Source: Nitrososphaeraceae archaeon (GTDB lineage: Archaea > Thermoproteota > Nitrososphaeria > Nitrososphaerales > Nitrososphaeraceae). Taken from it: 64,000 nucleotides of DNA. Positions 39,225 to 43,688 of the stretch are shown here, in pieces; within the stretch, counting starts at the first letter, position 1; every line of letters begins with the position of its first letter. The stretch is taken from the NCBI GenBank assembly GCA_040414675.1, contig JBEDUN010000164.1:3-64002 (forward strand). Reading direction: 5' to 3'. The position numbers and the translations under genes are program-made. The notes under the pieces were generated by a model. The model saw only the letters and a program-made list of their open reading frames with translations. It had not been told where the DNA came from and ran no database searches.

Positions 39225-39241
39225 GCATTCGTCGAATGTAC
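39225..39241. promoter_or_regulatory. Palindromic operator-like site GCATTCG-T-CGAATGTAC (copy 1)
   Basis: CATTCGTCGAATGTAC (39226-39241) is identical to 43672-43687. It is an inverted repeat with a single central T, immediately upstream of the TATA-like box of the 38701-39183 / 38157-38696 operon. Confidence 0.5.
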
Positions 39242-39375
39242 AACAATGGTACTTCATGTTGATGAGATGATAGCTTATGCAAAATCTATTGGGATTCTAG
39301 GTGTCCATACCGACATTATTATTCAATGCTATATTCAAAACAAAAGCTCGTCAAGGCAATATTTTCTAGTGCTTT

Positions 39376-42300
39376 TCACTTTTTGCTTATATTTGTCTTC
39401 CTGTCAATATTCTCAGTTTCAGAGGACTCTGACGAATTAAGGAGCTTCTCGATATCATCCTCATCTTCTTCTGTCTGACCAGCTTCTGCAGCAACAAGTG
39501 CATCTGCTTTTGCTTTCCTCCTCTTTCTAATGATCCTTATTATTATGAACGCTACAATAGCGAGAATCACTAAAATGATGATTGGCATTGGGATACCGAG
39601 AATTGTGTTTTGCGAATGACGATCTCCGCGCGTGTGGGAAGTCTGAGGTTTTACCAGCAATGTTTGATTTATTGTCGCTTCATGACTATTTTTGAGGTCA
39701 TCACTATATGTTATTTTCAGAGATACCGGATGGCTGCCCTGAAGAGTTGAGTTATCGACATTTGTAAGTGGGATGCTAAATGGTAGTGGCGAGTCAGGTT
39801 GGAGGTCACCTAAGTATTGGGGAGGTGGCAATGAGAATGAAGATGTAGACAGTCCTAACCCTGATGATTGGGAAACGTTATTTCGATGTTGGTCAGATGT
39901 CTGATTTTGATGATGTCTTCCATTATCAACTTGCTCTCTCGCTGAGCTAGTCGTGAATGGTTGATTTACAAGCTGGGCAGTAGTGTATAGGCCAATCGTA
40001 TTTCCTTGATTCAAAAGATTACCTACCAGATTAGGTGTCCCAGCAACATAATTTATTCCCAAATCAGTGACACTAACTCGTATATCGCCTATCACGTTTC
40101 CACCTAAAACAAATGAACCAATTTTGGATTGTCCTCCGGAAATATATTGTAGCGTTACCAAAAACGATACAGGGGCAGCAATCAAGGAAGTGGATGCATA
40201 TATTTTAGTTGTGAATTCATTTTTTGAATGGGGGGCTATGCTTGGAATGCTCCAGAGCGAATCCCCAACAATCTTCAAATCATCAGATTCCGATGCTATT
40301 GATGCCACTGCGTTTGTGAGAGGAAAATCATTGTTATTAGAAATTGTGAATTTCATGTCTTGTACTTTACCCGCCGTAAGAATGAGCGAAGAACTATTTA
40401 GACTATTACTCTTAACGCTTGACTGTTGGTTATTTAACGTAGCACTATATGCAACTTTAAAAATTTGATGATCTCGGTTATAATGCAAATTACCGTCGTT
40501 AGCTACATATGTGGGAAATTCTGGTTTCGGATCTTCATTCGTAGAATTAGAGTGTTGTGTTGAGCGGAAAAGTGCAGGACTTATTTGGTTATGATCCTTA
40601 AAAGAATAGGCACTTGCCGTAACGCCCGAAGCAGTGATACCATTTGGATTACCATTCTGGTTACTATTTAGCGATCCGGTATTGTTAGTAGAACTACCCG
40701 AAGGACCTACGCTGATTCCAGCTTCTGGAGGAGTCGGTAATACAAGTAACCCTACCGATGCACTTGTGCTCTTTGAATCTCCAGTAGCTGCGGTGTATGA
40801 AATTTGAAGATTCAGGTTTTGTAAAGTCCCACCAGCGGATTCTGAAGGATATATAACGGGATCAATTTCTGCAGTACCGTTTACAGGTATAGTTCCTAGG
40901 TTAAAGGTTCTAGAGCCTAAGTTTACGGCCGGAACAGTGGAAGTCGGAGAGGTAGTGGTTACTTGGCCAGGAGTATTGGTGGTAGTAGTAGAGGACGTGT
41001 TGTTAGTGTTACTTGTAGTCCCAGGCTGATTGACAACAACATTATTTGCTATACTGTTACCACTTATGCTCGAAATAGTTACAAGAACGCTATTCGCATC
41101 GGCTGTTCCTTTATTCTTGATGTTTATGACGGCTGTGTTGGAAAATCCTGGCTTCAAACTAGTAGTCTTGGAACTTGTGTCTAAAATAACCTTTCCAGGC
41201 AGTGAAAAAGGCACCATATATGTTTGAGTATTATATACACCTGGCTCAAGAGATGGCACCTTAAAATAGTATATTCTAAGTGATGCACTGTAATCGCCAA
41301 CCTTCACCACTTTACCTATATTCACCTTGAAATAAAGGGTATAAGTCTGTCCTGATTTTACTACGTTGGTAAAACTGGCAATTGCTGTCTGCTGTTGCTG
41401 CTGACCTTGAGATTGTAAATTGGTGATACCCGTTTGCTGAACCTTAGGAGCCTGACCATTATTACCTGCTGAGCCTCCCACACTAGTCGCAGAGGTAAAT
41501 CCAGGAGGAAGTGTGAGGTATCCGATTATTCCATTAATATCCGAAAATTCCGTGTTACTCAATACTACTGCAAATATGGATTGCCCTTCCCCAGGCCCAA
41601 CTTCTTGCTGAGGAGGTATCGGAAGCGCAGAAGAAGTAGATGAGCATACTGACAAGGAAGAAGAATTGCTATTAGCTGAACAGACTGACGAGTTTGCAGC
41701 CCAGTAGGAATCAACAAAGCCATTAGTGAAGATACTTCCTCCGGTACCTTGAATATTTTGTATTTGATCTGGACTATTAATATCAAGTTTGTTCTGAGTA
41801 TTAGATATTGATCCAAGTTCAAAATTCTGTCCTAGAGTTCTATTTATTATTAGTTGATGGGCATTTTTTAGATCATCACTGTAAGTTATATTCAGTGCAA
41901 CTGGATACAATAAAGGCTGGCCAGCTGCTTGAACATTTGTCAGTTGTGGTTCGTTTAGATAAGCCGTAGATTTCTCAATGGTATTTTTGGACTCTTGTAC
42001 TCCATTATCCCTGATCAAAGTATTAATGTTATTTTGCTGTGCGGACAATCTATCTGGCTGTTTATTGATTCTGAGTGGGATATTGAAGGGTACTGGAGAG
42101 TTTGCAGGAATACTTCCAAGATAATCTGAGGAAACCGGTAAGATCGTTATGCCACGAGATACACCTTGTGAGTTCGTCATGTTGTTGTTTCCTATACCTT
42201 CAGGCTGAACCATTTGGATATTAGTAAAGAGAGCTGGAGTGTTTCCCTCATTTAACAAGTTGCCGACGAGGTTGGGGGTACTACCTAAATATCTTATACC

Positions 42301-42870: not shown

Positions 42871-43579
42871 TCACAACTTCTTTTTCAATTGTACCATCTC
42901 GGATATGGATTGCTCGATCGGTTCTGGCAGCTAGATCTGGATTGTGTGTTACCATGATTATAGTTCTCGAAAATTTGTTTGAAAGCATAGTTAGTAAACC
43001 AAATACATCCTCGCCAGTTTTTGTATCCAGATTGCCAGTAGGTTCATCTGCAAGGATAATCTTTGGATTGTTCATCAGTGCTCTAGCTATTGCTACTCTT
43101 TGTTGCTGGCCACCGCTAAGATTGGTTGGTTTGAACTTGGCTTTATCTCGAATACCAAGAAATCCCAGAAGTCTCAACGCACGGCGTCGTCTATCTTTGT
43201 CGCTCATTCCACCAGTAATTCCAGGAAACTCTACATTCTTTAAAACGGTCGTTCTATTAATCAAATTATATGATTGGAAGATAAAGCCAATTGTGTTATT
43301 TCTTAAAGTAGAAAGCTGAGAGTCATTCAAAGTAAATATATCAATTCCATTAATAAATACCTTACCGGACGTAGGTCTATCCAGTGCACCTAGCATATTC
43401 ATAAGGGTCGACTTACCACTACCAGATGGTCCAACTATAGATACGAACTCACCCTTGTTAACTGAGAAGGATACATTTTTCAACGGAACTACCTTGCCCA
43501 TAGAAGAAAAGTATACCTTTGTTAAATTTTCGACTTTCAATGTTTCGGTATCGTATCCATAACCGTAATGTCTATTCAT
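42857..43579 (-). CDS. ABC transporter ATP-binding protein, MacB/LolD/FtsE-like subfamily
   Basis: Walker A GPSGSGKST, Q-loop FIFQSYNL, signature LSGGQQQRVAIARAL, Walker B ILADEPTGNLD, H-loop VTHN. The 3' end overlaps the next gene by 14 nt. Confidence 0.9.
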   Translation of the reverse strand: MNRHYGYGYDTETLKVENLTKVYFSSMGKVVPLKNVSFSVNKGEFVSIVGPSGSGKSTLMNMLGALDRPTSGKVFINGIDIFTLNDSQLSTLRNNTIGFIFQSYNLINRTTVLKNVEFPGITGGMSDKDRRRRALRLLGFLGIRDKAKFKPTNLSGGQQQRVAIARALMNNPKIILADEPTGNLDTKTGEDVFGLLTMLSNKFSRTIIMVTHNPDLAARTDRAIHIRDGTIEKEVVNVEN

Positions 43580-43662
43580 AATAATTTAATTCTCCCCAAA
43601 CGATACTATTATTAGGTATATTATCCTGTCAAATTACTTTTACTTCTTTTACTTATAAAAAT

Positions 43663-43688
43663 CATTCGATACATTCGTCGAATGTACC
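43663..43688. promoter_or_regulatory. Palindromic operator-like site ACATTCG-T-CGAATGT (copy 2) plus an extra upstream half-site CATTCGA
   Basis: atCATTCGAtACATTCGTCGAATGTACc. It lies in the divergent spacer between 42857-43579(-) and 43807-45609(+), directly upstream (minus strand) of TTTTTATAAG. Confidence 0.5.

Follow-up and report, generated by a model that had tools for sequence, protein, structure and literature searches.

The locus analysed here raises the question of what is controlled by a palindrome that stands before two operons of an archaeal genome, and by which protein it is read. The window, which is the whole stretch of 64 kb that was analysed, belongs to contig C164 of a 4.16-Mb assembly (G000; 36% G+C, 176 contigs), and the 16-mer CATTCGTCGAATGTAC is present in it as exact copies at 39226-39241 and 43672-43687, the positions at which it was first noticed. 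With their flanks both copies form 19-bp palindromes around a central T, and the 16-mer is the core of the longer element GTACATTCG-W-CGAATGTAC. The original prediction, in which the 16-mer was taken as the operator of an autoregulated winged-helix regulator encoded beside it, was partly supported: it was right in kind, but its scope was too local and it named the binder too specifically. With a probability of about 60%, a regulon of about 19 promoters, conserved and linked to copper, is defined by the 19-bp operator, which would be read by tandem-winged-helix regulators that activate transcription when copper is scarce. The palindrome is, on this reading, the genus-specific form of a published, mechanistically unexplained copper-limitation box.

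Two palindromes and their copies in the genome

Site 1 (39223-39241, GTGCATTCG-T-CGAATGTAC; GTACATTCGACGAATGCAC on the minus strand; matrix score 29.2) is a perfect 6-1-6 repeat, as had been described, with 8 of 9 arm pairs matching, and its centre lies 49 nt upstream of the GTG of a gene for a protein with four transmembrane segments (4-TM). Site 2 (43669-43687, ATACATTCG-T-CGAATGTAC; reading ATACATTCGTCGAATGTAC) had been called a perfect 7-1-7 palindrome, of which the palindromy stood whereas the extent did not, the repeat being a perfect 8-1-8 and so better than stated; its matrix score of 36.2 is the highest in the genome. The centre of site 2 is located 99 nt before the ATG of an ATP-binding cassette (ABC) operon. 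In dinucleotide shuffles, 0.02 matches to CATTCGTCGAATGTAC are expected at up to two mismatches. The caveat that one 16-mer pair in 64 kb may be due to chance was fair, and chance is excluded by evidence from outside the window.

When the genome was searched with ACATTCGNCGAATGT, 3, 9 and 17 matches were obtained at 0, 1 and 2 mismatches, respectively, and the reversed pattern gave 0, 0 and 8, so that 12 sites with at most one mismatch stand against none in the control. A 27-nt matrix was built from the 12 best genome sites, in which flanking positions are conserved as well (RRT-ACATTCG-W-CGAATGT-AYY) and the centre is A or T in every site. Scanning the genome with this matrix revealed 19 sites scoring at least 22 and one scoring 18.0, and in the reversed genome no site reached 16. 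All sites scoring at least 18 are intergenic, that is, outside credible open reading frames (ORFs), and matches below 18 lie mostly within ORFs. Outside the window, start codons and distances are approximate because genes were called there with a crude longest-ORF caller, whose calls cover about 64% of the genome. Contigs C158, C156 and C76 have three sites each, and the contig of the window has two. The genome-wide search that had been proposed as a check therefore returned about 19 copies, all intergenic, whereas the control gave none, and random scatter within genes was not seen. The sole other matrix match in the window (21423-21449) scores 11.1, below the level at which the reversed control is silent. 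Three strong palindromes (C67:1898, C140:9355 and C48:19415) lie in gaps of 0.5-1.8 kb that have no correctly oriented ORF of at least 80 aa nearby, the one on C140 with a canonical TTTTTATAA box, and they may serve small genes or non-coding transcripts. Rfam gave no match anywhere in the window, and an RNA element as explanation of the palindromes was rejected.

After each site had been oriented toward its downstream gene, a TATA-like box was found 6-8 nt after the 19-mer at no fewer than 15 of the 19 sites, either TTTTTATAA (or TTTTTGTAA or TTTTTATAG) or a box of the ATTTAAAT, ATTTATAA, ATTTAATA or AGTAAATAA type. With its end at this distance from the putative TATA box, the palindrome would abut the TFB-recognition element (BRE), with its centre near -47. 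At the other genome sites the distance to the ORF start is in many cases 44-71 nt. The A/T-rich boxes that had been described at both promoters of the window are present, each 7 nt from its palindrome. The one serving the 4-TM operon (39207-39215, TTATTTACT; AGTAAATAA on the minus strand) is nearly invariant in five genomes, with one substitution in G001, and lies 24-32 nt before the GTG at 39183, for which reason the transcript is probably leaderless or nearly so. The promoter of the ABC operon (43653-43668, minus strand) consists of the 7-nt spacer cgaatga at the BRE position followed by the TATA box TTTTTATAA, which appears as TTATAAAAA at 43653-43661. The layout of a 7-nt spacer and TTTTT(A/G)TA(A/G) recurs in five more promoters (C61, C115, two on C156, and C140), and in C61, C115 and C156:5195 only, the spacer sequence also resembles that of the window (cgaatca, caaatca and cagatca).

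These spacers bear on some smaller claims of the original prediction. The word CATTCGA at 43663-43669, which had been counted as an additional half-site, falls in the spacer between palindrome and TATA box, and in view of the similar spacers in related promoters it is read as BRE-position sequence and not as a third half-site. Site 2 had also been placed in a spacer shared with a divergent gene for a 600-aa protein, which starts 129 nt downstream of it; the geometry was borne out on the ABC side, whereas no A/T box is present at the canonical offset on the side of the 600-aa gene, and control of that gene by site 2 is therefore unsupported. A weaker half-site before the MFS operon, TTTCGAATGTAG, lies at 36639-36650 and not at about 36648-36659 as reported. 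No position in that spacer scores above -0.2 in the matrix, and a search of two orthologous loci (L050 and L051) did not recover the exact 12-mer; on these two grounds it was rejected as a site.

All six congeners (same genus) carry 4-25 copies of the palindrome at up to one mismatch, with 0 in the controls, and the corresponding numbers are 0-3 in other genera of the family and 0-1 in other families. Orthologs of the operon that contains the 4-TM gene and a regulator gene are present in G001, G006, G004 and G002 (regulator identity 73-90%), and in all four the centre of the site 1 palindrome is located 49-50 nt before the 4-TM start. In alignment A3, which covers site 1, the distal spacer has diverged beyond recognition and the block from palindrome through A/T box to start codon is kept; in alignment A2, site 2 lies within a block of 46 bp that shows no variation among four genomes, and it is also kept in G005 with a score of 35.8. 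Phylogenetic footprinting, which had been suggested as a check, thus found both sites at the same positions in orthologous spacers. In G001, G003, G004 and G005 palindromes are located upstream of orthologs of the same genes: both MacB permeases; a 1099-aa CopC/CopD protein; a 193-aa protein together with an 858-aa CopC/CopD protein; a 214-aa protein, a 4-TM protein and a regulator; a 258-aa protein and a divergent ABC-2 transporter; a sorbosone-dehydrogenase-like protein and a polysaccharide deacetylase; a pair formed by a 372-aa protein and a zinc-finger protein, and a YtkA-like protein; and the locus of 600-aa gene, ABC ATPase and giant-protein gene. This pattern is regulon conservation and not sequence drift.

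Relation to the copper-limitation motif of Nitrososphaera viennensis

Archaeal amoA was found in the genome, the regulator of the window carries the archaeal domain PF24266, and the nearest named records are metagenome-assembled genomes (MAGs) of uncultured Nitrososphaeraceae, with Nitrosopolaris and Nitrososphaera among the relatives. The host is an uncultured soil-type ammonia-oxidising archaeon of the Nitrososphaeraceae. A family set was assembled from 80 loci with relatives of the window's regulator from named genomes (298 were found) and 30 loci from relatives. In more than 40 of the 80 loci, the element TTCG-N5-TG[CT]AC is present on the strand of the regulator, 400-700 nt upstream and just before the 4-TM gene, and there it is always followed by CAAT..CTTAAATTA or CTTATTAG. 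Counted by regulator rows, 59 of 112 have the element exactly and 85 of 112 with at most one mismatch. In most of the roughly 100 Nitrososphaeraceae loci it stands ahead of the operon of 4-TM and regulator genes, and it precedes the regulator operon even in a Nitrosopumilus-like genome (L029). A 4-TM homolog was matched before the regulator 57+16 times among the 80 loci with two queries that may overlap, and 25 of the 80 have a CopC/CopD gene within 6 kb. Across the family the words TTCG and TGTAC are nearly invariant, and the 5 nt between them vary by clade.

The window palindrome holds this element on both strands, as TTCG-ACGAA-TG(T/C)AC, and in terms of its letters it consists of two opposed, overlapping copies of the family element TTCG-N5-TGTAC(C). 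Asymmetric forms in canonical geometry are also present in this genome, at C76:17302 (operon of a B-type regulator, encoded at C76:17762-18337, that of the window being of A type), at C158:23323 (a 4-TM gene) and at C76:11719, and its B-type operons carry TTCGATAGTTGCACC instead of the palindrome.

In N. viennensis, the motif TTCSGSMTTTGWACYANT occurred 12 times, with its start at -35 to -70 from the start codon and in some cases on the other strand (Reyes et al., 2020, ISME J, PMC7785015). It precedes genes induced by copper limitation, among them copC/D_b and NVIE_014290, the latter presumably co-transcribed with the ArsR-type regulator NVIE_014280, and copper limitation induces the genes named 2.2-2.7 log2-fold, and that cluster as a whole 2.2-2.8 log2-fold, according to the dataset of the same paper, in which regulation of the cop genes is called an open question (Reyes et al., 2020). 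Outside that paper, no mention of NVIE_014280 was found in the collection of papers searched. The link to N. viennensis was drawn from the text and dataset of PMC7785015 and from named Nitrososphaera MAG loci. Family sites differ from TTCSGSMTTTGWACYANT by 0-7 mismatches in a continuum that includes an exact match at Nitrososphaera locus L107, and random 18-mers typically differ by 9-10 (0.17% of them by five or fewer). In the window sites TTCG, TG[TC]AC and the 5-nt spacing are kept. At the level of sequence the family element thus corresponds to the motif of Reyes et al. (2020; PMC7785015), and because the palindrome has the element on both strands, it is a symmetrised form of the published box.

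Both motifs belong to the same family, the Nitrososphaeraceae, and share the words TTCG/TTCS and TG(W)AC(Y) at equal spacing. They also agree in their position just upstream of the promoter and on either strand, the centre of site 1 falling in the range of -35 to -70, and in the genes that follow, namely copC/D genes, exported proteins of unknown function, and an operon for a hypothetical membrane protein and an ArsR-type regulator. The differences are that the box is symmetrised here to a 19-bp palindrome with ACGAA/TCGAA in the middle, and that the regulon adds a split MacB-type ABC system and giant surface proteins. In the earlier paper no binding protein is named and no TATA geometry is given (PMC7785015). 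Since the motif was published in 2020, the advance made here is one of extent and mechanism and not of kind.

Candidate readers of the box and direction of control

The regulator of the window (38157-38696, minus strand; 179 aa) is encoded 4 nt downstream of the His-rich 4-TM membrane protein (38701-39183, minus strand; 160 aa), whose gene is the first of the operon. Pfam assigns PF24266 (HVO_0163 N-terminal HTH) to residues 17-75 of the regulator (40.9 bits, cut-off 31) and HTH_24/HTH_5 to residues 88-135, with PF01022 over residues 93-135 (43.9 bits, cut-off 22). Its AlphaFold model (pLDDT 85, pTM 0.75) displays two winged helix-turn-helix units followed by C-terminal helices, and residues 43-55 and 118-130 were assigned as the putative recognition helices, the starts of which are nearly invariant among 14 relatives (N43, G44 and H49; S119, T120 and W123). 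The alignment contains one semi-conserved cysteine (C107), the conserved histidines H49 and H124, and no CXC. Foldseek retrieved the tandem-winged-helix proteins ScpB, RPC34-like and SarS, and ArsR/SmtB domains for one half. The 4-TM family has conserved histidines in its membrane helices, in the motifs PH.xH..IY....H and LPH, and 5-6% His in four paralogs; its overall pattern is LPH(I/V)xH..MIYHxLLH ... ELPH, and no Pfam or NCBIfam family was matched. These features make the 4-TM protein a plausible candidate for a copper-sensing partner of the regulator, as the tandem-winged-helix family is the best, and a plausible, candidate for the reader of the box.

The genome encodes four close paralogs of the regulator (on C164, C134, C76 and C36), and two more are distant. 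A maximum-likelihood tree was computed in a quick run (IQ-TREE with SH-aLRT support; a few rows are duplicates for one regulator). In it, all regulators with a palindromic element at their own promoter, including that of the window, fall into one clade, A (11 rows, 100% SH-aLRT), and outside it the own-promoter elements are asymmetric. Some paralogs deserve a separate description. On C36 (28398-28418, locus L017) a perfect 10-1-10 palindrome, AGTTTATTCA-W-TGAATAAACT, which shares only an ATTC-N3-GAAT core with the main box and has one other near-copy in the genome, is located about 80 nt upstream of a 4-TM/regulator operon (27238-28330, minus strand) and may be the private operator of this third paralog. 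The closest regulator paralog (C134:8081-8960, L033; 63% identity) is found, where the contig ends, directly 3' of the end of a gene for an FtsX/MacB-type permease (...YPAWKASRLSPLEALRR) and not of a 4-TM gene. On C158 (23369-24736, L006) a 137-aa 4-TM paralog with an asymmetric box of its own (C158:23323) has no regulator behind it; a 510-nt gap follows and then a ZnuB/AztB-type metal ABC permease that is truncated where the contig stops, and in G001 and G005 the orthologs of this 4-TM gene are followed by a regulator. In G003 (C84:366000-376300, L148) the B-type regulator matches in two adjacent pieces in different frames, which indicates a frameshift or an assembly error.

On the reading preferred here, the tandem-winged-helix regulators would read the box with two different putative recognition helices per chain, one head on TTCG and the other on TGTAC. 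As the centres of these words are about 9.5 bp, or one helical turn, apart, both would lie on one face of the DNA. The palindrome would offer the site in both orientations, and since the offset between the two is about half a turn, a second chain could, speculatively, sit on the opposite face. When copper is scarce, copper-free protein would bind just upstream of the BRE and help TFB and TBP to load, which would activate copper acquisition (CopC/CopD and the exported proteins that start with His), the split MacB-type ABC system with surface proteins, and the regulator's own operon. Copper, sensed directly or via the 4-TM partner, would release the protein from DNA. The palindrome might be read by the A type of the window or by a B type orthologous to NVIE_014280. 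An activator that is copper-free when bound and is released by copper is the simplest model because the site is upstream of the TATA box, induction occurs at low copper, and ArsR proteins are usually released by metal.

Known systems resemble this arrangement in part. The C-terminal winged helix is similar to those of ArsR/SmtB proteins (CzrA 1r1u, SmtB, CadC; 8qkf, 1u2w; target-normalised TM-score 0.66-0.77), and a metal-linked regulon with autoregulatory layout is common to both. By contrast, each chain of the regulator has two winged helices, where ArsR/SmtB proteins pair single domains in a homodimer; neither CXC nor an alpha-5 ligand set is apparent in its alignment, it stays below the NCBIfam HTH_metalloreg cut-off (32.4 versus 55 bits), the site is upstream of the promoter core, and induction, judged from the N. 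viennensis data, follows metal shortage and not excess. The SarA family (SarS, 1p4x) also has two winged-helix domains per chain as a dimer mimic and is a precedent for a monomer on a bipartite site, but it is bacterial, without sequence relationship or metal link, and its domains are homologous copies whereas those found here belong to different Pfam families. CopR/CopT of the Sulfolobales, also cited in PMC7785015, is reportedly an archaeal copper-linked transcription factor encoded next to cop genes. It differs in its domains (HTH + TRASH, the latter metal-binding) and is said to control efflux of copper (copA) when the metal is in excess; neither its sequence nor its operator was found to be similar here. 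Ptr2 of Methanocaldococcus and TFB-RF1 of Pyrococcus are reportedly archaeal activators that bind directly upstream of BRE/TATA. Their sites, like the palindrome, stand immediately upstream of the BRE, suggesting recruitment of TBP/TFB, but they belong to other protein families (Lrp-type and another winged helix-turn-helix family, respectively) and activation in our case is only inferred.

Several points weigh against activation by regulators of this family. Activation was deduced only from the position of the site and the direction of the N. viennensis response, and the induction values come from N. viennensis only, as given in the PMC7785015 dataset. That the A/T boxes act as archaeal TATA boxes, and where transcription starts, was inferred from the DNA letters. 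The window sites differ from TTCSGSMTTTGWACYANT at 5-7 of 18 positions by hand count, so that the link between the window and the motif of Reyes et al. runs through intermediate forms. One third of the A-clade regulators have no element at the expected place; G005 carries 9 near-exact palindromes despite having no A-clade regulator, and G003, likewise without an A-type regulator, carries 4. Classical ArsR/SmtB proteins, moreover, are repressors whose DNA affinity is usually lost on metal binding, and many archaeal regulators repress by occluding BRE/TATA. It is possible, if doubtful, that the same box and regulator family work as a copper-loaded repressor that sits on the BRE and blocks TFB until starvation releases it. 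The ArsR/SmtB-like domain and the general habit of archaeal repressors are consistent with this, as is the proximal arm, which runs into the BRE position in several promoters, and the induction by copper limitation in N. viennensis would fit equally well. On the other hand, the site lies entirely upstream of the TATA box and in no case covers TATA or start, and DNA binding induced by metal is not the usual ArsR/SmtB allostery.

Unlikely, in our view, is the narrower proposal that the 179-aa A-type regulator of the window is by itself the specific and sufficient reader of the palindrome, autoregulating and controlling the surface-protein operon, with the B type reading the asymmetric element only. 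The restriction of palindromic own-promoter sites to the A clade, the TTCGATAGTTGCACC element before the B-type operons of the same genome, and the presence of site 1 in all A-type orthologs argue for it. Against it, the palindromes of G005, which include site 2, and those of G003 are kept without an A-type regulator, from which it follows that the window's paralog is not required. In G005, which is 90% complete, the 600-aa gene, site 2, the ABC ATPase gene and the giant-protein gene lie on a 455-kb contig, no 4-TM/regulator pair follows the giant-protein locus, and no regulator of more than 45% identity was found anywhere in the genome. Palindromes are also located within the B-type copper cluster on C76 and before an operon for a 214-aa protein (F13), a 4-TM protein and regB' in G001 and G005, and A and B types hardly differ in their putative recognition helices. 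With the clade evidence on one side and that from G005, G003 and C76 on the other, the box was assigned to the regulator family and not to one paralog. The dual-winged-helix regulator of the window, originally named as binder, is thus supported at family level by its own-promoter position and the clade co-variation, but not, in view of G005, as this paralog; and of the predicted autoregulation and surface-gene control, the conserved sites before both operons held up, whereas the scope of two promoters gave way to a copper regulon of about 19.

That an unrelated transcription factor reads the box, with the tandem-winged-helix operon merely one of its targets, appears quite improbable, although this too would detract from the assignment to the regulator family. 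The pairing of regulator and box was drawn from sequence comparison, and a C2H2 zinc-finger gene (C76:14878-15561) also adjoins a site; but no TATA box is present at the canonical offset on the zinc-finger side, the element precedes the regulator operon throughout the family including the Nitrosopumilus-like locus, its type co-varies with the regulator clade, and two different, nearly invariant DNA words have their counterpart in two different putative recognition helices that are nearly invariant as well. That the sites are non-regulatory, being repeats due to chance or derived from a small promoter segment that is mobile or was duplicated, can practically be dismissed: flanks are shared beyond the palindrome by site 2, C61, C115 and C156:5195, where promoter duplication is possible, but the controls gave zero hits, every site is intergenic, most stand before unrelated genes with unrelated flanks, which led us to reject a mobile or duplicated element, footprints and regulon are conserved across genomes, and no Rfam family matched.

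Genes behind the sites

Genes behind the sites were annotated by Pfam and NCBIfam scans. They encode two CopC/CopD fusions, which are two of the four CopD genes of the genome, a YtkA-like protein, a CHRD protein, two MacB-type FtsX permeases without an adjacent ATPase, an ABC-2 transporter, a PQQ-type sorbosone dehydrogenase, a polysaccharide deacetylase, a SnoaL protein, and several exported proteins without family. The common theme is copper handling at the cell envelope. In two of the exported families without assignment, the part after the predicted signal peptide begins with His (AHERQ, AHQRG and GHTFSQ), and such a mature N-terminus would recall N-terminal-histidine copper sites. Three of these proteins are encoded on C158 (L006; 19114-19695, 22412-23056 and 17752-18702, with starts AHERQLFTIGGK, AHQRGLFTIGGK and GHTFSQ) behind three sites, two of them in the CopC/CopD cluster, one directly before a CopC/CopD gene, and they are candidates for new copper-binding proteins.

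In the window, site 2 precedes the gene for a 240-aa MacB/LolD-type ABC ATPase (42857-43579, minus strand), which in NCBIfam scores best against MacB and LolD, without reaching the equivalog cut-offs, and has no permease adjoining it. The ATPase gene is overlapped by a co-directional gene for a giant surface protein of 1164 aa (39376-42870, minus strand), rich in Ser, Asn and Thr, with a signal peptide and a C-terminal membrane anchor. The divergent 600-aa protein (43807-45609, plus strand) is paralogous to the giant protein's central module, with which it shares 28% identity over 431 aa. In G005 (C55:322000-341000, L149) the 600-aa gene, site 2, the ATPase gene and the giant-protein gene are syntenic with the window, and downstream of them the 4-TM/regulator, moaA and MFS genes are absent; the match to the giant protein falls there into several pieces, and frameshifts may be the reason.

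The same palindrome is located upstream of the window ATPase and of both orphan MacB-type permeases (C156:5430-6845, L007; C16:46319-47689, L009:5320-6690), and this is conserved in congeners. The ATPase and the two permeases may therefore form one split transporter assembled through co-regulation, and the shared operator offers an explanation for an ATPase gene without a permease, since the two orphan permeases elsewhere carry it. A further and tentative proposal concerns ammonia-oxidising archaea as a group: a single-chain regulator with two unlike winged helices, reading TTCG and TGTAC one turn apart, might together with the His-rich 4-TM protein be their copper-starvation sensor, two chains of which would be held on opposite faces by the palindrome, and might coordinate copper capture with a MacB-type machine encoded at separate loci. 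The question of cop gene regulation raised by Reyes et al. (2020) now has testable parts, namely a sharp 19-bp operator, a fixed promoter geometry, a conserved list of target genes, and candidate regulators that form a small family, together with a membrane protein as their candidate partner.

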